This document shows positions 13,490-30,339 of a stretch of 41,478 bases of DNA, one piece after another. The stretch spans positions 1 to 41,478 of the forward strand of contig CAYIEL010000001.1 in assembly GCA_964362425.1 (NCBI GenBank), written 5' to 3'. Source of the stretch: an uncultured Candidatus Saccharibacteria bacterium. Its GTDB lineage: Bacteria; Patescibacteriota; Minisyncoccia; Phycocordibacterales; JACOZG01. The notes under the pieces are model-generated. The model saw nothing but the letters and a program-made list of their open reading frames with translations. It did not search any database and was not told the origin of the DNA. Position 1 is the first letter of the stretch. The number at the start of each line of letters is the position of its first letter. Position numbers and translations under genes: made by a program.

Positions 13490-13506
13490 TGGATAAGTTA
13501 TCCACA
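13490..13506. promoter_or_regulatory. inverted pair of DnaA boxes (TGGATAA-g-TTATCCACA)
   Basis: Perfect consensus 9-mer TTATCCACA at 13498-13506, abutted by an inverted near-consensus box. Confidence 0.5.
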
Positions 13507-21998: not shown

Positions 21999-22026
21999 GA
22001 TTCCGCAGAAAGGAGAACATCAAAAA

Positions 22027-22054
22027 AGGCGGGATGCACTTCGGTGCCCCGCCT
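22027..22054. terminator. bidirectional terminator hairpin with UUCG loop
   Basis: aggcggg-atgcacttcggtgc-cccgcct, flanked by aaaaaa and ttttcttt. Confidence 0.7.
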
Positions 22055-22074
22055 TTTCTTTATGCCCTCTCCCC

Positions 22075-22118
22075 AACACCGAGTGTCTCACAAAATGTGC
22101 GACACTCGGTGTTTAACA
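22075..22118. repeat. 44-nt palindromic repeat, copy B (intergenic, overlapping the stop of a pilin-like gene)
   Basis: aacaccgagtgtctcacaaaatgtgcgacactcggtgtttaaca is an inverted copy of 15118-15161. Confidence 0.9.
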
Positions 22119-22364
22119 AGTAATCCCGGGAATTGTCTTGCAGATGACATGCATAATGCCGTAGAAGGAAATCATTATGAACATCCCGACCACTCCCCAG
22201 AGGATATGTTGTTGCCCCGTCTTGCGTGCTTCTTCATTGTCGGCATTACGAATGAACTCGAGCACGCCGTATAGGAAATAGATCAGGGCAAGGGCGAAAA
22301 GAAAATAGATAATCGGATCAACAATCGCTGTTTTGATCTTCTCGAGGAGTGGTATTGGGGGCAT
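22113..22364 (-). CDS. T4SS-pilin-like (TrbC/VirB2-like) small membrane protein, paralog 1
   Basis: 83 aa with a TM-polar loop-TM layout: LIYFLYGVLEFIRNADNEEARKTGQQHILWGVVGMFIMISFYG. Confidence 0.6.
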   Translation of the reverse strand: MPPIPLLEKIKTAIVDPIIYFLFALALIYFLYGVLEFIRNADNEEARKTGQQHILWGVVGMFIMISFYGIMHVICKTIPGITC

Positions 22365-22373
22365 TAGGCAAAG

Positions 22374-22739
22374 TTATAAACTATAACGGGGAATTTGGGG
22401 AAGCTCCGGCACATCCCCACCAGTCCTAACATTAAGGCTACTACTAAGAACCCTAACAAGTCCCCAAACCGCGGCCATGACAAAGAGAGCGATAACTCCG
22501 TAGATCATCATATTTCTTCCCGCCGCCCGTTTTTCCTCATCGACACTTCCCCCGAGAATATATTGCGCCAAGCCCCAAAAGAAGTAGAGGAGGGCAAGTG
22601 TCATGATAATCGGGATAGCAATACCCATAACATCTTGAATTCGAATCAAAATACTAGTAACTGTTTCCTGCGCGAACGCCAACACTGGCAGAAGAGCAAC
22701 CCCTATCGCGAACACTGATTTATTAAGCAATTTAGACAT
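22374..22739 (-). CDS. T4SS-pilin-like small membrane protein, paralog 2
   Basis: Signal peptide MSKLLNKSVFAIGVALLPVLAFA, then LLYFFWGLAQYILGGSVDEEKRAAGRNMMIYGVIALFVMAAVWG. Confidence 0.6.
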   Translation of the reverse strand: MSKLLNKSVFAIGVALLPVLAFAQETVTSILIRIQDVMGIAIPIIMTLALLYFFWGLAQYILGGSVDEEKRAAGRNMMIYGVIALFVMAAVWGLVRVLSSSLNVRTGGDVPELPQIPRYSL

Positions 22740-22868
22740 TATAATTTTATTTAACACTATTATTAATTAAACTAACGACCACTAATGCCCTACATTAGAG
22801 CATGTTCTAGACTAGTAACCAAGTATCGAGGGTGGATAAGGGATTGGGGTTGGGAGAAGGAGAATTTC

Positions 22869-23159
22869 TTATTTTGTCGTTGTTGGAAAACTAATTGGTT
22901 CATTCTTTAGTTCAAAAGTATTTTGCAACACCGTCACCAGGCCCCACATTGAAACCATAACAAAAATAGCAATAATTCCATAGGTCATCGTCGTGATCGC
23001 CTCTTTCCTTTTTTCGTCACTATCCGTTGACTGGATGTATTTGAGAACGCCCCAGAGAAAGTAAATTACGGTTAGCCCACCGATTAACAAAGTAATCGGT
23101 TTAAAAATGGCGCCGATAATCGTAGTAACAAGTTGTTCGAAATTTGGATTAGTAACCAT
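22869..23159 (-). CDS. T4SS-pilin-like small membrane protein, paralog 3
   Basis: VIYFLWGVLKYIQSTDSDEKRKEAITTMTYGIIAIFVMVSMWG. Confidence 0.6.
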   Translation of the reverse strand: MVTNPNFEQLVTTIIGAIFKPITLLIGGLTVIYFLWGVLKYIQSTDSDEKRKEAITTMTYGIIAIFVMVSMWGLVTVLQNTFELKNEPISFPTTTK

Positions 23160-23174
23160 ATTATTTACTATTGA

Positions 23175-23537
23175 TTAAACTTTTAATGACGTGACCGTCG
23201 TCTGAATCACCTGGGAGATGACCAGCGCGCCGAGGACAATCGCCGCGCCGATTATCGTCCAGTATAACGTCTTTTTCGCTTCGCTCAACTGCGAATCGTT
23301 CCCCTGCGCCTTGACGAAGAGGAAGCCAGAATAAACGATCGCCAGAGCGATCAAAGGAATCCCGACTTGGACGATGACATTGAGCAAGGCCGTGAGAAGA
23401 TCAAGAATAGTTTCAGAATTGAGAGGATTCTTGATAGCGGGAGAGGGTGGGGTGGGAGTTGGCCTACCATCACCAACAGGCAGTCGAGCAAAAACTTTGT
23501 TTACCAGTCCGAAAATGTTTAGTAAATAGTAAAGCAT
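23175..23537 (-). CDS. T4SS-pilin-like small membrane protein, paralog 4
   Basis: IVYSGFLFVKAQGNDSQLSEAKKTLYWTIIGAAIVLGALV. Confidence 0.6.
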   Translation of the reverse strand: MLYYLLNIFGLVNKVFARLPVGDGRPTPTPPSPAIKNPLNSETILDLLTALLNVIVQVGIPLIALAIVYSGFLFVKAQGNDSQLSEAKKTLYWTIIGAAIVLGALVISQVIQTTVTSLKV

Positions 23538-23546
23538 TTTAGTTAA

Positions 23547-23993
23547 CTAATTTTTAAAATTGGACGGGGTAAAATCTGGCTCGACAAGGGTGGTAAACAC
23601 TAATCTTACAATTAAATACGACGCGAGCACAATCACTAATCCCCAGATTGCCATCCAGATAATACTCTTGGCCTGCGAACGCTTGCTGTCATTCGTCCCC
23701 GCCGTCATCATCACTGCACCCCCCACCGCGATCACTCCCGCGGCGAGCGGCACGGCGAAAATGACGAGGTAATCAAAAACCCGCTTGACCAGCTCGAGAA
23801 AGTTGTTGTAGCCACAAGGCGTGGGGTTAGTTTTTGTCCCGCACGGCACTAAACCAGGAGCCAATGAACTCGGCGGCCCAGCTGGACCGCCCGGTAAACC
23901 GACCGTATCAGCTTGAGCCAACACAAAAATTGGTAAGCATATTAAAACCAAAATGAGTAGAGACCGATAATTATTTCTATTGGCCATAAGCAT
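23547..23993 (-). CDS. T4SS-pilin-like small membrane protein, paralog 5 (Cys-containing N-terminal extension)
   Basis: Start moved to MLMANRNNYRSLLILVLICLPIFVLAQA (ATG 23993 or 23987). C-terminal VIAVGGAVMMTAGTNDSKRSQAKSIIWMAIWGLVIVLASY. Confidence 0.55.
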   Translation of the reverse strand: MLMANRNNYRSLLILVLICLPIFVLAQADTVGLPGGPAGPPSSLAPGLVPCGTKTNPTPCGYNNFLELVKRVFDYLVIFAVPLAAGVIAVGGAVMMTAGTNDSKRSQAKSIIWMAIWGLVIVLASYLIVRLVFTTLVEPDFTPSNFKN

Positions 23994-25293
23994 CGGTGAC
24001 GAGATCTTCGAGCGCTTTATTCGCCGCACTGGCCGCTTGAACGCTTGCCAAACGACCCGTGAGGACATTATCGACCATTTGTTTGAAAATCGCTTCAGTG
24101 CGAGATGGATTGAAGTCAAACCAATTCCGGCCGATAATCGCCGCTTGGTAAAAAACGGACATCGTCGGGTCGGTCGTCCCCCGCGCCAAGAGATCCGACC
24201 GGGCCGGCGGGAGCCCGGTGAGCCCAGACAAACGATTGACGGTCGGCGCGGAAGCAAGCGCCTGCGCTACTGACCAAGCCGTGGCTACTTTTTTACTATC
24301 GCGAACCAAAGCCACACCGGTCGTTCGCGCGAAAGTCAGCTTCGGACCATCTAACTTCTGCGGCGGGATGGCGACGTCGAAAGCCAGATGCGGATTGCCA
24401 CGACTGATCTCATTGAACTCGCTCGCCGGCCCGAGATAGAAAGCCGCCTGTCCGCGAATGAAATCCTGTTTGGCTTCTGGTAGAGATCGGTTCCAAGAAT
24501 AATTCAGTCGCGCCGGATCGGCGAATTGCGAGTAGAAATCAAGCACCGCGGCGGCCGGTTTTAGAGTAAAGCCAAAAGATTCATTGAGAAGCGGGGTTGG
24601 ACGGACAGCCGTGTTATTAAAAATCGGATTCCCCGCCTGCAAAAGAAGTAGGGCAATAATATCCTTCATGTGGTTGATATTCCGATAATCGCCGAGAGCA
24701 ATCGTGCTCTGAAGAATGTTCCGGCGATCGTCAAAAATGGTAAGTGGCGCCGTTTTGGCAATAAATTCGGTCCAGGTTTTGGGTACGGTCGGCAAACCAG
24801 CGTTAGTGAGTAAATCGCGATTGTAATAGAGAACGAGTGGATCAATGAGAAGTGGCAAGGCGAGTGTCCCGTCAGTCCGAAGGAAGAGGCGACCGGCTTC
24901 GGGATAAGTATCAAGAAAAGTTCGCGGGGCATAAGTATCGGATGGAATGGGTAGAAGCCGATCTCGTTGAGTGAGAAAAACTTCATGCGACGCAATCAGC
25001 AAATCGGGAGCGTGATTGTCAGCTTTGGCCGTCAGGAAATCTTGCTCGATGGTTGACCGATCTTTCTCTTGATAAATAAGTGTGAACTCGCTTTTGTGTT
25101 GATCGTTGAATTCGTTGAGGAAATCGGCGATCAAGGCGCGCGGAATCGTCCCCCAGACCGTGACCTCACCACCCGTTCCACCTTGCGGTGATCGGAAACC
25201 CGGCAGGATGCCAGCGAAGATAAGCACACCAACCAGAAGCAGGGCAACGAAGACAATCAGGATGGCAAGTTGGAAAGTAGAAAGATTTTTCAT
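23977..25293 (-). CDS. membrane-anchored extracellular solute-binding protein (ABC family-1-like), orphan
   Basis: 438 aa with an N-terminal TM anchor. The GEVTVWGT...DLLIASHE...YYNRDL pattern is typical of sugar-type SBPs. No permease or ATPase gene is nearby. Confidence 0.6.
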   Translation of the reverse strand: MKNLSTFQLAILIVFVALLLVGVLIFAGILPGFRSPQGGTGGEVTVWGTIPRALIADFLNEFNDQHKSEFTLIYQEKDRSTIEQDFLTAKADNHAPDLLIASHEVFLTQRDRLLPIPSDTYAPRTFLDTYPEAGRLFLRTDGTLALPLLIDPLVLYYNRDLLTNAGLPTVPKTWTEFIAKTAPLTIFDDRRNILQSTIALGDYRNINHMKDIIALLLLQAGNPIFNNTAVRPTPLLNESFGFTLKPAAAVLDFYSQFADPARLNYSWNRSLPEAKQDFIRGQAAFYLGPASEFNEISRGNPHLAFDVAIPPQKLDGPKLTFARTTGVALVRDSKKVATAWSVAQALASAPTVNRLSGLTGLPPARSDLLARGTTDPTMSVFYQAAIIGRNWFDFNPSRTEAIFKQMVDNVLTGRLASVQAASAANKALEDLVTDAYGQ

Positions 25294-25814
25294 GAGAACA
25301 TTAAACCATAATGATGATCGCCGGCCGGGAAATCATTGATAAACTTGAATCCCGCCTCGGCGAAAATCTTTTTCGCCTCGGCGGGCGGCAGAACCTGCTC
25401 CGAAGTCGGCCCCAAACCACCGAATGACCCGCTCCAATCTACTAGCGCGACCTTACCATCTACTTTCAAAATTCGTTTCGCCTCACAAACTAAAGTATAT
25501 TTGGCAGAAGTCTGGAAAAGAAGATTGGCAATCAAGACGAAGTCAACGGATCCGTCGGCAAGCGTTGAACCGTGCGCGTGCTCAAGATCACCGCGTAAAA
25601 CTTCGATATTGCGAATATGCTTTTCCTTCGCCTCGTGCGCGAGGCGGGCGAGAATTTCTTTTTGAATATCAATGGCGTAGGCCCGCCCATCATGCCCGAC
25701 AGCTTGAGCCAGCGCTAGAGCATAAGCCCCGCTACCCGCACCAAAATCGGCCACGGTCATTCCTTCATTAAGGTGGAAGTGAGTGACAACTTCTTGTGGT
25801 TTCGAGAAGGGCAT
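25290..25814 (-). CDS. class I SAM-dependent methyltransferase
   Basis: Motif I VADFGAGSGAYALALA, then AIDIQ and VLIANLL. The stop overlaps the next start (ATGA). Confidence 0.75.
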   Translation of the reverse strand: MPFSKPQEVVTHFHLNEGMTVADFGAGSGAYALALAQAVGHDGRAYAIDIQKEILARLAHEAKEKHIRNIEVLRGDLEHAHGSTLADGSVDFVLIANLLFQTSAKYTLVCEAKRILKVDGKVALVDWSGSFGGLGPTSEQVLPPAEAKKIFAEAGFKFINDFPAGDHHYGLMFS

Positions 25815-25830
25815 AATATCTGCCCCTAGA

Positions 25831-28320
25831 TTATACCACCGGTGACAAACAGGTTAAAGAGGCAAGGGTGTCGCCGGGGTGGAGCTTCATGATGCGGACG
25901 CCTTGGGTCTGGCGGCCAAGAGTCGAGATTTCGGCGAGCGTCGTTCGAATCACTTGGCCGTGTTTGGAGATCGTAATAATTTCCGTGGCCGTCTCATCGA
26001 GCACTTGAGCGTTGATCAGAGGTCCGGTTTTATCCGTCACTTGGGCTGTCTTAATCCCCGATCCCCCTCGGCCCTGCACTTTGTATTCTTTCAAAAGCGT
26101 TTTCTTACCGAAGCCATTTTCGCTGACGACTAAGAATTGGCCGGCCTTTTGCTCGGGACCAATCGCCCCGAGACCAACGACCACATCGGTCTTCGTTTTT
26201 AATTTAATTGCCCGGACACCGCCGGCCGCCCGGCCCATTTCGCGAATTGAATTTATTTTGAAGCGAATCGCTTGACCGGCGCGGGTAGCAATAATTGCCT
26301 CATCACCCGAGTGAACGACCGCTACCGACAAGAGTTCGTCGCCCGAATGAAGTTTAATCGCAATGATCCCGCTCCGGCGCACATCACTCATGTCAGACAC
26401 GGCGACGCGTTTGGCCACACCACCGCGCGTCACCATAAGCAGGGAGGCATTATTTGATTTCCCACGTGGAACAGCGAGAACAGAAGTAACTTTTTCATTG
26501 TCAGCCAACGACAAGAAATTCATAATCGACTTGCCTTTGGTCGCTCGTTTACCTTCTGGGATATCGTACATCTTGATCTGGTAAACTTTCCCGCGATCGG
26601 TGAAGAAAAGTAGATCGTCATGCGTCTTAGCCGTTAAGAAAATAGTGACGAAATCTTCTTCTTTAGTATCTAGATCAATCACGCCGATACCGCCGCGCTT
26701 CTGCGAACGATACTCGACCGGATCAGTACGTTTGATGTAACCACCGCGGGTTAGAACAAGCACCATTGAGGTATCCGGCACTAGATCTTCCGTTCGAATC
26801 TCTTTGACACCGTGGGAAATAATTTTCGTTCGGCGAGCATCGCCGTATTTATCTTTAATCGCCACGAATTCTTGCTTGATTACCGCTTTCACTTTGCGCG
26901 GATCAGCGAGTAGCGCTTGCAATTCTTTAATCAGAACTTGTTTCTCTTTAAGTTCATCTTCAATCGCTTGCCGTTCGAGGCCGGCGAGTTTCTGAAGTTT
27001 CATTTCGAGAATCGCCGTCGCTTGCAATTCGGAAAAATCAAAACGTTTAACCAAATTCTTATGAGCCGTGGCGGCATCAGCTGATTGCTTAATCGTCTTG
27101 ATCACCGCATCGATTTGATCAATCGCCTTCACTAAACCGAGCAAGATATGCGCTCGCTCCTCCGCTCGCGCCAAGTCGAAACGGGTTCGCTTCAAGACAA
27201 TCACTTCGCGATGGGCTAAGAATTCTTGGAGAATCGCCTTGAGCGACAAGAGTTTCGGCACGCCATCAACGAGCGCCAACATGTTGTAATGGAACATCGT
27301 CTCAAGCTCGGTATTTTTATAAAGAGCGTTGAGAATTTTCTCGGGGTAAACTCCGCCTTTCAATTCAATCACTACGCGCGTGTCAGCGAGTGTCGTTGAT
27401 TCATCACGAATATCTTTAATCCCTTCAATCTTTTTCTCATGCACCAGATCAGCCATTCGAACGATAAGCTCAGCTTTATTCACTTGATACGGGACAGAGG
27501 TAATAACGATTTGGTGGCTCCCCGCTCCGCCACGAGGCGAGCCCGCTTTCGTCTCGACAATTTCCGCTTCGCCTCGGACCAGCACTCCGCCGCGGCCGGA
27601 GGCCGCGGCGTGATGGATGTCCGCTTGATTGAAAATCAGTCCGCCGGTCGGGAAGTCCGGTCCTTTGATGAAACGGAAAAGATCTTCCGGCGTGGCATCG
27701 TTATTGTCAACTAAAAAAATCAACGCCTCCATCACTTCGGTCAAGTTGTGCGGCGGGATTTTCGTCGCCATGCCGACAGCGATACCGATCGAACCCATCA
27801 ATAAGAGATTAGGAATGGCCGAGGGCAAGAGCGTTGGCTCTTTCCGCGAACCATCGTAGTTCGGCACGAAATCCACCGTCTCTTTTTCAATATCGTGCAG
27901 AAGTTCACCGGCGAGCGGCGCCATCTTGACCTCGGTATAACGCATGGCCGCCGGCGGGTCGCCATCGATCGAACCGAAGTTACCTTGACCAATAACTAAG
28001 GGGTAACGTAGGGAGAAGTCTTGCGCGAGCCGAGCGAGCGCTTCATAGCAAGCCACATCACCGTGGGGATGGAATTTACCAAGCACTTCACCAACCACCA
28101 GCGCCGATTTACGAAATCTAGAACTCGAACCTAATCCCAACTCGTGCATAGCGTAGAGAATCCGGCGGTGCACTGGCTTCAAACCATCACGAACGTCAGG
28201 TAAAGCGCGCGAGACAATCACCGACATCGCGTAGTCGAGATAGGAAGTCCGCATCTCGGACGAGATATCAGTGGGAATTATCCTACTTGTATTTTTATTT
28301 TCCGGTAAACTATCGGGCAT
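25831..28320 (-). CDS. gyrA: DNA gyrase subunit A
   Basis: [17 protein letters not shown], active-site AAMRYTE, and C-terminal beta-pinwheel repeats. Confidence 0.95.
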
Positions 28321-28326
28321 AAAAAA

Positions 28327-28593
28327 TTAAAATTGTTTGGTTAACGCCTGCCAACCAGCTTGAATCCTTTCAACAATACCGTGAGCCGGCACCGTTACTG
28401 TCGTCACCGAACCGACACTCGCCATCACTGGCACCGTCGGCGTCCCGCGCAGATTAGCCGACAAACGAAAACTAGCCAACCATAAAACGAATAGGCAAAT
28501 CGTCACACTGGAGGCCAGAAACAAAGCGCGGCGCTGACGCTTCGCCTCTGGCTCATTCCGCCAACGCTCGATGTGGTGAGAAAATGATTTCAT
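28327..28593 (-). CDS. small membrane protein, hypothetical
   Basis: 88 aa with one TM helix, 6 nt upstream of gyrA. Confidence 0.4.
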   Translation of the reverse strand: MKSFSHHIERWRNEPEAKRQRRALFLASSVTICLFVLWLASFRLSANLRGTPTVPVMASVGSVTTVTVPAHGIVERIQAGWQALTKQF

Positions 28594-28616
28594 AATTTCT
28601 ATTTTAACTTTATAAC

Positions 28617-29162
28617 TTAAATGGCTGATAAAACGATAACTTCGCCTTCTTTCTCGGCAACATCTTTTTTCTTAAACACGAACTTATCAATTGGTTTCAC
28701 TTCTTCCGCGCCGGCCTCTTTCAAAAATTGCCGAATCAACGTGTCGGATTCCGAAAGTGGGACAATAATTTTCGGCTGGAAAGTCAGCGCCAATTTATAA
28801 GCCGCGACGGGCGTTAGCGATGCTCCGCCAGCTGGCAGATCAAGCGGGACAAACAAAACATCAACTTCGCCAATGCCCGAAGATACCACTTCCGGAATCT
28901 TCGCCTCACCGAGCACACCCCAATGTGCGAGACGCAAACCGTCGAGCGATAAAACATAGACTGTATTTAAAGTCTCATTCGGTCCAGTTGTTTCAAAACC
29001 GCGAATAAAAATATTCGAGACCTCGTATTCCCCCGGCCCATTGATAACAAAAGGTGCTTTACCGCCAATTTTTATTTGGTTAAGGCCGTTCGGATTCCAA
29101 GCCACGGCGAGATCGCCATGTTGAATCTTGACAAAACCACCGCCGTGATAGGTGATAATCAT
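28617..29162 (-). CDS. beta-lactamase-fold-like (UPF0173-like) protein, tentative
   Basis: Start moved to MIITYHGGGFVKIQ (ATG 29162). The layout resembles short MBL-fold proteins, but I could not find a clear HxHxDH motif. Confidence 0.4.
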   Translation of the reverse strand: MIITYHGGGFVKIQHGDLAVAWNPNGLNQIKIGGKAPFVINGPGEYEVSNIFIRGFETTGPNETLNTVYVLSLDGLRLAHWGVLGEAKIPEVVSSGIGEVDVLFVPLDLPAGGASLTPVAAYKLALTFQPKIIVPLSESDTLIRQFLKEAGAEEVKPIDKFVFKKKDVAEKEGEVIVLSAI

Positions 29163-29197
29163 AGTCGTTAATTTCAGTATAGCAAAAAGCGAGCGCC

Positions 29198-29225
29198 TTG
29201 ACCAGTCGGCGACTTCTGTTATACT
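29198..29225 (+). promoter_or_regulatory. promoter TTGACC-16-TATACT, 7 nt upstream of the rpsA ATG
   Basis: -35 at 29198-29203, -10 at 29220-29225, ATG at 29233. Confidence 0.5.
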
Positions 29226-29232
29226 AGCCCGC

Positions 29233-30339
29233 ATGTTAACAGAAACTGAAACTATCATGGAAGTGACCGGTGCGGTCGGCCCAATGGACGGGATTCTGAA
29301 AATGTCTTTGGCCATGCCCGAGATTGATTCCCTGGTAAAAGGCACGGTCATTGCCAAAATTCGTGGCGCCGTCTACATCAACGTTCCCCCTTTCGGCACC
29401 GGCCTCATCTTCGGCCGCGAATACCTGAACGCTCGCGATCTCATTAAAGAGGTCAAGGTTGGCGATCACGTTACCGCCAAAGTCATTCTACCTGAAGGCG
29501 AGAATGGTTATATCGAACTCTCACTCAAGGAAGCCAAGCAAGCGCTCTTGTGGACTGACGCCAAGAAAGCCGTCGAGGGCAAAGAAAGCTACGAACTGGT
29601 GGTGAAAGAAGCCAACAAAGGTGGCCTAATTATGGAATGGCAAGGCATTGAAGGTTTCTTGCCCGCCTCCCAACTCAAAGCTGATCACTATCCGAAAGTT
29701 CCGGATGGCGACAAAATGAAAATTATGGAGGAACTCAAACGCCTCGTTGGCGAGAAACTCTCCGTCTATGTCATTGGCGCCGACCCGAAAGATAATAAAC
29801 TTATTTTCTCCGAGAAATCCGGCGACGGCAAGAGCCGAAAAGAAATAATTGAGCAATACAATTTGGGCGACACCGTTACCGGCGAAGTTACCGGTATTGT
29901 CGACTTCGGTGTCTTCGTTAAACTCGAAGAAGGTTTCGAAGGCTTAATCCACATTTCCGAAATCGATTGGTCACTGGTTGAGAATCCTCGCGACTATTTC
30001 AAAGTCGGTGAGAAAGTTCGCGCCAAAGTGATTGAGATTAAAGATGGCAAAGTTTCTCTCTCGGTTAAAGCGCTTAAGACTAATCCCTGGGTGGAAGCCG
30101 AAGGCAAATATAAGAAAGGTGATGAAGTAAAAGGCGTAGTTATTAAACACAACAAACACGGCGCGCTCGTTTCGATCGAAGAAGGTGTCGCCGGCCTCGT
30201 CCATATCTCCGAATTCAAGGGTGAAGATGAACTCCGCCGGGCGCTTGAACTCGGAAAAACTTATAGTTTCAAGATCAATCTCTTCGACGCCAAGAATCAG
30301 AAGCTAACGATGTCACCGGCCAAACCCCTTGCCAAATAA
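29233..30339 (+). CDS. rpsA: 30S ribosomal protein S1 (four S1 domains)
   Basis: Repeated S1 OB-fold motifs (GTVIAKIRGAVYINV, GDTVTGEVTGIVDFGVFVKL, GEKVRAKVIEIKDGKVSLSVK, GDEVKGVVIKHNKHGALVSI). The exact start is uncertain. Confidence 0.85.
   Translation: MLTETETIMEVTGAVGPMDGILKMSLAMPEIDSLVKGTVIAKIRGAVYINVPPFGTGLIFGREYLNARDLIKEVKVGDHVTAKVILPEGENGYIELSLKEAKQALLWTDAKKAVEGKESYELVVKEANKGGLIMEWQGIEGFLPASQLKADHYPKVPDGDKMKIMEELKRLVGEKLSVYVIGADPKDNKLIFSEKSGDGKSRKEIIEQYNLGDTVTGEVTGIVDFGVFVKLEEGFEGLIHISEIDWSLVENPRDYFKVGEKVRAKVIEIKDGKVSLSVKALKTNPWVEAEGKYKKGDEVKGVVIKHNKHGALVSIEEGVAGLVHISEFKGEDELRRALELGKTYSFKINLFDAKNQKLTMSPAKPLAK

Follow-up and report, generated by a model that had tools for sequence, protein, structure and literature searches.

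The best described relatives of the locus presented here are the tandem virB2 pilin arrays of Patescibacteria, which belong to a monoderm-type type IV secretion system (T4SS) encoded close to dnaA. Quinonero-Coronel et al. (2025; PMC12102498) reported 441 VirB2 arrays of 2-11 genes each from 383 assemblies, with a mean identity of ~25%, and an array was found near virB4 in 1135 of 1948 assemblies. The T4SS and its pilin series were essential in Candidatus Southlakia epibionticum ML1, a member of another class (Wang et al., 2023; PMC10633639), and the Patescibacteria T4SS has been covered in a review (PMC12857230). According to the literature, no more than 103 of 3,035 genomes of Patescibacteria have a relaxase, and antigenic or host-range variation has been proposed as the meaning of the VirB2 arrays. 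In addition, T4SS pilins were among the signal-peptide-bearing genes with the highest expression in Paceibacteria enrichment cultures and metatranscriptomes (PMC10936435).

We analysed a stretch of 41,478 nucleotides, hereafter the window, from an uncultured Patescibacterium of the class Paceibacteria (contig CAYIEL010000001.1 of assembly GCA_964362425.1). The window carries five tandem genes for VirB2-like pilins, led by the gene for a membrane-anchored solute-binding protein (SBP), and the locus is placed on contig C1 of a 678-kb assembly of 62 contigs that is 92.6% complete. Like the published arrays, it consists of strongly diverged tandem genes of the Pfam family PF18895, here five with a core identity of 9-37%, and the genome holds the same VirB4/VirB6/VirB3 monoderm-type core next to dnaA. 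In contrast to the published arrays, however, the window array lies outside the virB4 cluster and on another contig, the virB4 cluster having a single pilin gene of its own, and the genes that lead it, behind gyrA, are those for a methyltransferase (MT) and for an orphan SBP of the MalE fold. The array as such is a locus of an already known kind. New relative to the literature that we searched are the phylum-wide lead by an SBP combined with the absence of a permease, the paralogue lineages with fixed array positions, and the class-wide placement behind gyrA; the text of PMC12102498 makes no mention of 'solute', 'gyrA' or 'ABC', and our literature search found nothing on Patescibacteria VirB2 with a substrate-binding protein. 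We favour, with a probability of roughly 60%, the reading that the pilins are subunits handled by the dnaA-proximal VirB4/VirB6 machine and that they have gained the membrane-tethered SBP of sugar type as a partner, whose most likely role is to bind a glycan or oligosaccharide of the host surface as a receptor.

Gene order around the pilin array

All genes of the block are on the minus strand and follow each other in the order gyrA, MT, SBP, pilE, pilD, pilC, pilB and pilA. Listed in this order, with lengths in amino acids (aa), they are:

25831-28320, minus strand: gyrA, an open reading frame (ORF) that is the class-specific neighbour upstream of the module
25290-25814, minus strand: MT, 174 aa, a small class I S-adenosylmethionine-dependent methyltransferase with matches to Methyltransf_31, Methyltransf_11 and Methyltransf_25
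23977-25293, minus strand: SBP, 438 aa, matching SBP_bac_8 (68.5 bits) and SBP_bac_1 (57.9 bits)
23547-23987, minus strand: pilE, 146 aa (148 aa from the ATG at 23993), PF18895 31.9 bits
23175-23537, minus strand: pilD, 120 aa, PF18895 34.7 bits
22869-23159, minus strand: pilC, 96 aa, PF18895 50.6 bits
22374-22739, minus strand: pilB, 121 aa from the ATG (alternative GTG start at 22757), PF18895 37.0 bits
22113-22364, minus strand: pilA, 83 aa, the last gene of the array, PF18895 23.7 bits (E-value 5e-5)

The gap between gyrA and MT is 16 nucleotides (nt), the end of MT and the beginning of the SBP gene share 4 nt, and the pilE start overlaps the SBP stop by 11 or 17 nt, depending on the ATG chosen. 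Within the array the gaps are 9 nt (pilE-pilD), 15 nt (pilD-pilC), 129 nt (pilC-pilB, or 111 nt from the GTG) and 9 nt (pilB-pilA). The five paralogous small ORFs on one strand that a preliminary description of this DNA had reported were confirmed in their coordinates and spacings against the ORF list and the sequence, with lengths of 83-146 aa. A profile search against NCBIfam gave no specific assignment for MT.

For the comparison of neighbourhoods, SBP loci of relatives were fetched and annotated with profiles built for this analysis. The sample comprised 30 loci from the same order (17 families), 40 further loci from the same class (~40 families), 40 loci from outside the class and 5 genomes of the class that lack the SBP, adding up to 115 loci, of which 110 have the SBP and 70 (30 + 40) make up the class sample. 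Within the order, the SBP was followed by 3-8 pilin genes on the same strand in 30/30 loci, with MT present in 29 and gyrA in 28. The same arrangement was found in all 40 further loci of the class, where gyrA and MT were each present in 37 and SBP identity fell as low as 24%. Taken over the whole class sample, the SBP stood directly before the pilins in 70/70 loci, MT was kept in 66/70 and gyrA in 65/70, the gyrA orthologues being 47-88% identical. Within the class, a gene for a hydrolase of the metallo-beta-lactamase (MBL) fold belongs to the conserved block as well. In many genomes the SBP gene runs into the first pilin gene or ends right where that gene begins.

Outside the class, the SBP was immediately followed by 2-11 pilin genes in 32 of the 40 loci. 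Upstream gyrA and MT were both present in only 1/40, and 31 of the 32 SBP-pilin loci had neither of them nearby. Since the pair occurs without gyrA in 31 of these 32 loci, the SBP is the more widely conserved partner of the array. The order of SBP and then pilins is hence, in the loci compared, conserved across the phylum, whereas the placement behind gyrA and the MBL-fold hydrolase gene is specific to Paceibacteria. The tie of the array to gyrA, as asserted in the preliminary description, stands as a matter of gene order inside the class, including 5/5 genomes that lack the SBP, but it hardly extends beyond it. Background synteny at the class level is low. A divergent rpsA-like gene was kept in 32/40 loci, whereas the next genes on the right-hand side were kept in only 1-2/40 and the genes for IF2, an RbfA-like protein and a GIY-YIG protein on the left in 3-5/40.

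The pilin paralogues and the solute-binding protein

Profile searches with Pfam matched all five small proteins to T4SS_pilin (PF18895), with E-values from 2e-13 to 5e-5. Four of them scored above the curated cut-off of 26.6 bits; pilA, at 23.7 bits, scored below it and still grouped with orthologues from the same array position. Furthermore, pilD matched TrbC (PF04956) weakly (E = 4e-4), and pilC matched NF045849 of NCBIfam, the Mbov_0395 family of pilin-like conjugal transfer proteins, with 43.5 bits at a cut-off of 40. As only one further PF18895 match exists elsewhere in the 678-kb genome, five such genes in a row are not a matter of chance. These profiles make it nearly certain that the window encodes five diverged members of the T4SS_pilin family (VirB2/TrbC type) that are paralogous to one another, as had been proposed on inspection of the translations.

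A hydropathy scan located two core hydrophobic segments around a short charged loop in each paralogue (residues 10-39 and 53-76 in pilA) and three hydrophobic segments in pilE. An AlphaFold2 model of pilC, built from 45 sequences, gave a two-helix hairpin with helices at residues 7-46 and 48-82 and a predicted local distance difference test score (pLDDT) of 75. By hydropathy and the pilC model, each paralogue is a two-helix membrane hairpin. The N-termini differ. In pilB the N-terminus resembles a signal peptide and ends in ...LAFAQ, and that of pilE is likewise signal-peptide-like and ends in LAQA; pilE also has an extension rich in Pro and Gly that contains a Cys pair. pilD has an atypical leader and a Pro-rich N-terminal extension, and pilA and pilC begin directly at helix 1 with no signal peptide. 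Within one genus, pilC occurs either as a protein of 118-120 aa with a signal peptide or as one of 93-96 aa lacking it (window pilC; L019, L020, P0126). Because both forms exist within a single genus, the leader of pilC was probably lost recently while the two-helix core was kept.

We next consider the age of the paralogues. Among the order-level relatives, the best cross-genome matches of the window paralogues fell on the same array position, for pilB in 29 of 30 relatives, and additional copies in larger arrays sat in the middle of the array. A tree of 166 pilin sequences (FastTree, 117 columns, with trust limited to its starred groups) required 24 changes of position label, as compared to 99.9 for shuffled labels. 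In this tree 29 of the 31 distal, first-position sequences (pilA; 30 relatives plus the window) fell into one clade with a support of 99, and pilD belonged to a clade with a support of 96, in which the second-to-last array position accounts for 28 of the 31 sequences. The two positions nearest to the SBP formed a joint clade (support 98) that includes the pilin of the virB4 locus. As in the relatives, pilE occupies the position next to the SBP. None of the paralogues is shorter or better conserved than pilA. Ratios of non-synonymous to synonymous substitution rates (dN/dS) within the genus ranged from 0.08 to 0.32 for the five pilins (pilA 0.08, pilB 0.16), compared to 0.05 for gyrA and 0.09 for the SBP; with dS near saturation, these values are rough. 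By this measure all five pilins are under purifying selection within the genus, and by their matches and clades they belong to old lineages with a fixed array position across the order. Fixed positions and purifying selection fit distinct structural roles better than recent antigenic or host-range variation. The published idea of such variation fits this locus poorly, and we rejected its antigenic form for this lineage, since each paralogue has its positional orthologues throughout the order and dN/dS lies at 0.08-0.32. In many other families (L079, L112, L064, L065, L078 and others), an ORF with the pilin profile, often adjacent to the SBP, is 300-1239 aa long, which suggests that a pilin module has been joined to a large surface domain.

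The preliminary description took the SBP for a membrane-anchored binding protein of the ATP-binding cassette (ABC) transporter type, which its SBP_bac_1 and SBP_bac_8 matches and its transmembrane anchor bear out. A hydropathy scan placed a single transmembrane segment at residues 1-36. In Foldseek, the AlphaFold2 model (pLDDT 92.8) retrieved sucrose-, malto-oligosaccharide-, sophoro-oligosaccharide- and cycloalternan-binding proteins as top matches, with E-values down to 5e-22 and template modelling scores, normalised to the query, of 0.65-0.74. The protein is thus modelled as a MalE-type oligosaccharide-binding fold anchored in the membrane by one N-terminal helix. Among 42 homologues 22 alignment columns are invariant, and eight of these are Trp or Tyr residues, which we infer to line the sugar cleft.

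The SBP is the sole SBP_bac_8 match in the genome. A profile search for a permease of the MalF/G type (BPD_transp_1) found none in this 92.6% complete genome and none in 37 of 41 order-level relatives, most of which are 97-100% complete; the same search gave matches in 14/14 reference genomes that served as control. The SBP itself is present in 41/41 genomes of the order and 188/201 of the class, and its family in 202/251 genomes from the rest of the phylum. By these profiles it is truly an orphan with no ABC permease partner in the genome, in line with what had been noted for the window. Two observations concern variants of the SBP gene. In one genome of the same family (G021, L097:537-2384), MT and SBP form one ORF of 615 aa with an MT domain, a transmembrane helix and the SBP; the junction coincides with a poly-A run and may be either a real fusion or a frameshift of the assembly. 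In L115 and L118, which belong to unrelated families outside the class, the pilin array follows not one SBP gene but two paralogues in tandem.

The T4SS core and the predicted transcription signals

The preliminary description had found no secretion ATPase near the array. This holds for the 41-kb window, where searches detected no VirB4, no VirB6, no ABC permease and no other T4SS core gene, but it does not hold for the genome. On contig C17 (L001, 51-8137) we found, in this order, a TrbL/VirB6-like gene (24.8 bits, just under the cut-off), a PrgI/VirB3-like gene (40.8 bits), a VirB4-like ATPase gene (P-loop_TraG 87.5 bits, E = 1e-24; AAA_10 40.5 bits), a gene with an NYN domain, three unassigned ORFs and a sixth pilin gene. 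As judged from translations, this cluster adjoins yidC-rnpA-dnaA-dnaN. A VirD4-like coupling protein is encoded on contig C20 (7112-8800, minus strand), with matches to T4SS-DNA_transf (33.5 bits), TrwB_AAD_bind (29.3 bits) and TraG-D_C (25 bits) that all exceed the cut-offs. Together these matches indicate that the genome encodes a matching monoderm-type, dnaA-proximal T4SS core; with the array on C1 and virB4 on C17, the array is not near virB4. An AAA_10 match on contig C18 was rejected as a coupling ATPase, its sequence looking by eye like a DNA translocase of the FtsK type. On C17, the N-terminal extension of the sixth pilin contains a Cys pair, and the NYN-domain gene product is RNase-like. 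Orthologues of VirB4 were found in 196/201 genomes of the class. Since VirB4 is nearly universal, its phyletic co-occurrence with the SBP is uninformative. No conjugation context was present in the window, and no search aimed at relaxases was made. The non-conjugative role in surface structure or attachment that had been suggested for the array agrees with the published view of the Patescibacteria T4SS.

Three transcription signals were predicted from the sequence of the block:

25830-25857, minus strand: promoter of MT, SBP and the pilins, overlapping the gyrA stop (pattern scan, 10/12 matches with TG)
22794-22839, minus strand: internal promoter in the pilC-pilB gap (sequence reading and recurrence in relatives)
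22022-22113, minus strand: end of the operon, two strong hairpins (RNA fold -62.2 kcal/mol, z = -9.8 against shuffles)

The putative promoter before MT consists of the -35 element TTAACC (25857-25852), a spacer of 16 nt and a TG-extended -10 element TATAAT (TGGTATAAT, 25835-25830). As the -10 element is only 16 nt from the ATG, the MT leader would be very short. In most of the 30 loci from the order, an element resembling TGnTATAAT precedes the estimated start of MT by ~3-22 nt, and the MT-proximal -10 was kept even in loci where 0.5-1.5 kb is inserted between gyrA and MT. No terminator-like site was seen between gyrA and MT, and read-through from gyrA is therefore possible. At the other end, hairpins at 22113-22075 and 22059-22022 follow the pilA stop, and a U-run behind the second one gives it the appearance of an intrinsic terminator. 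The first hairpin (22075-22113) is a near-perfect 13-bp palindrome.

In the gap between pilC and pilB, the predicted promoter is composed of the box TTATCCAC (22839-22832), 9 nt, a -35 element TTGGTT (22822-22817), 17 nt and a TG-extended -10 element TCTAAT (22799-22794), and the motif GGTCGTT follows downstream at 22780-22774. The box, the -10 element and GGTCGTT recur in the same gap of relatives. A structured RNA was also considered for this gap of 129 nt; Rfam gave only tRNAs in the window, and a promoter explains the gap better. The sequence TTATCCAC is the core of the DnaA box. It has 65 copies in the genome where ~25 are expected, and 18 of the 65 are followed by a promoter-like site of like orientation, between 0 and 29 nt away (8-14 nt for 10 of these), as compared to 3/65 on the opposite side and 3.6% of random segments. 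From these counts, TTATCCAC(A) appears to behave as an upstream promoter element throughout the genome. The preliminary description regarded the array as apparently co-transcribed with gyrA; together, the conserved promoter-like sites before MT and before pilB-pilA argue against such co-transcription being obligatory.

Some further sequence features of these regions were recorded. The exact motif GGTCGTT lies 13-25 nt past the -10 element, in the predicted pilB leader, in loci across the order (L017, L019, L020, L029, L033, L036, L038, L044), and it is not enriched genome-wide (85 copies versus 68 expected). Other copies of the DnaA-box core TTATCCAC(A) in the window are at 13498, 13715, 35512, 37745 and 41453, and one copy of TTATCCAC precedes dnaA on C17 (10724). 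A recognisable Shine-Dalgarno sequence is absent upstream of the block genes (22364-29357), the regions before the starts being AT-rich.

Interpretation and comparison with known systems

We read the region as an SBP-led operon of VirB2-like pilins, which would comprise MT, SBP, pilE, pilD, pilC, an internal promoter, pilB, pilA and a terminator. The unit would have its own promoters before MT and before pilB, and its position behind gyrA may add read-through transcription that the partnership of SBP and pilins would not need. The pilins would enter the membrane, upon which the VirB4/VirB6 machine would assemble a mixed surface structure from major and minor subunits, and in other lineages some subunits would bear large adhesin-like domains. 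The tethered SBP would act with this pilin structure and not with an importer. Its ligand would most likely be a glycan or oligosaccharide of the host surface, recognised either for docking or for triggering the machine. In a more far-reaching version, the Patescibacteria T4SS would have the SBP as its receptor for a substrate or a host glycan, and the SBP would form a hitherto undescribed, SBP-guided surface organelle with mixed, position-fixed VirB2-like subunits, serving either host selection through the surface oligosaccharides of the host cell or an SBP-dependent import that replaces lost ABC permeases. We regard this extension as unlikely.

Several observations weigh against the receptor reading. 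The remaining 8 of the 40 loci outside the class have a solitary SBP, and no permease was seen among their flanking ORFs as judged by eye from the N-termini. Conversely, five genomes of the class keep the array with no SBP, and in 5/5 of them the pilins stand directly behind gyrA, with or without MT. Since both SBP-less arrays and solitary SBPs exist, the partnership would be dispensable in some lineages. Moreover, synteny alone is not proof of a shared function, because the functionally unrelated gyrA is equally conserved in the block. A contact between SBP and pilins is putative, and no fusion of the two was present in the 115 loci (110 with the SBP) or among the best 120 SBP homologues; every ORF in the 40 out-of-class loci was tested for both profiles, and the SBP frames of the 70 class loci were all too short to include a pilin domain. 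The one oversized SBP frame followed up, that of G021, is the ORF of MT and SBP described above. When the pilC model was compared with PDB structures by Foldseek, no match reached E <= 0.001 and the helical-hairpin matches obtained were non-significant, and a profile search against the PDB ranked the pKM101 pilin TraM (8cw4) at the top with a weak E-value of 0.12. The promoters and the terminator are predictions. To our knowledge, a pilus of these proteins has never been seen in any Patescibacterium.

Alternatively, the locus could be a frozen neighbourhood of a streamlined genome, in which SBP, MT, gyrA and pilins were held together neutrally and the SBP, with an unrelated role such as service to an unrecognised transporter, shares only the transcription unit. 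The equal conservation of gyrA and of the MBL-fold hydrolase gene in the block within the class is what this would predict, as are the loss of the SBP from arrays that stay and its solitary presence in other lineages. Outside the class, however, the SBP-pilin pair survives a change of every other neighbour in 31/32 loci, background synteny drops to 1-5/40 within a few genes, and 37/41 genomes show no candidate transporter, so that we consider neutral linkage improbable. Somewhat less credible to us is SBP-dependent uptake, in which the two-helix 'pilins' would form a membrane conduit instead of a filament and, with the VirB4 machine or by themselves, take a host oligosaccharide or other solute from the SBP, replacing the ABC permease in a nutrient scavenger. 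This would account for an SBP that is present in 41/41 genomes of the order and 188/201 of the class, yet in 37/41 has no MalF/G-type permease beside it in the genome. It would also suit a fold shared with true transport SBPs, including the 22 invariant columns with their eight Trp/Tyr residues among 42 homologues, a gene for the SBP that is tightly coupled to that of the first pilin throughout the phylum, and a T4SS that in Patescibacteria, according to the literature, usually has no relaxase and no known function. On the other hand, no T4SS pilin is known as a solute channel and the family is homologous to the filament-forming VirB2/TrbC; the extracellular domains of 300-1200 aa on some array members elsewhere suit adhesion better than transport, and the array persists in some genomes that have lost the SBP.

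Least likely in our view is that the SBP acts as a sugar sensor in the manner of ChvE: its signal would pass through one of two histidine kinases, or a different partner in the membrane, so as to regulate expression of the pilins or the T4SS, and the SBP would have no structural part in a pilus. The genome does encode two HisKA kinases, the SBP has no permease, the promoters of the array look regulated and include an element resembling a DnaA box, and there is an established precedent in ChvE-VirA. Yet it is the pilin array that accompanies the SBP as its conserved genomic partner: in the 110 loci the markers applied, which did not screen kinase domains, gave only pilins, MT, gyrA and a few window neighbours beside it. 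The genome also has no gene for a methyl-accepting chemotaxis protein, and an SBP gene that overlaps the one for the first pilin suggests that both proteins are made at a fixed ratio. We retain the receptor reading as the best explanation of the locus. The T4SS is essential in the sole Patescibacterium tested genetically; an SBP of known fold that is conserved beside the pilin genes throughout the phylum, and lacks its own transporter, could reveal what this T4SS moves or binds. The old, position-fixed paralogues point to a multi-subunit structure with distinct roles rather than to interchangeable antigenic variants.

Among the systems outside Patescibacteria, the VirB2/TrbC/TraA pilins of diderm bacteria (PF04956; pKM101 TraM, 8cw4) resemble the window pilins as small two-helix hairpins with a short charged loop. 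Diderm conjugative systems, however, have one such pilin where this genome has five or six paralogues, two of them with no signal peptide, and the host considered here is monoderm, with no VirB5 tip protein recognised. In the Mycoplasma integrative and conjugative element family Mbov_0395/MMCAP2_0565 (NF045849), to which pilC matches above the family cut-off, the pilin-like proteins are encoded by single genes in a mobile conjugative element, whereas here a chromosomal array of several paralogues is found together with an SBP. That pilC matches NF045849 agrees with the MPF-FATA ancestry that has been published for the T4SS of Patescibacteria.

With the MalE-type binding proteins (Thermotoga maritima MalE2, 6dts; Atu4361, 4qsd; a sophoro-oligosaccharide-binding protein, 5yse), the SBP shares the two-lobe fold. 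In contrast to those of ABC systems, it has no MalF/G-type permease in the genome, is anchored by a transmembrane helix and has a pilin array as its genomic partner.

In Agrobacterium, the periplasmic sugar-binding protein ChvE potentiates the induction of the vir T4SS genes through VirA. There too, a sugar-binding protein is functionally tied to a T4SS. ChvE, however, belongs to another SBP family, acts via a sensor kinase and is not encoded with pilin genes, whereas the SBP of the window leads the pilin array itself.

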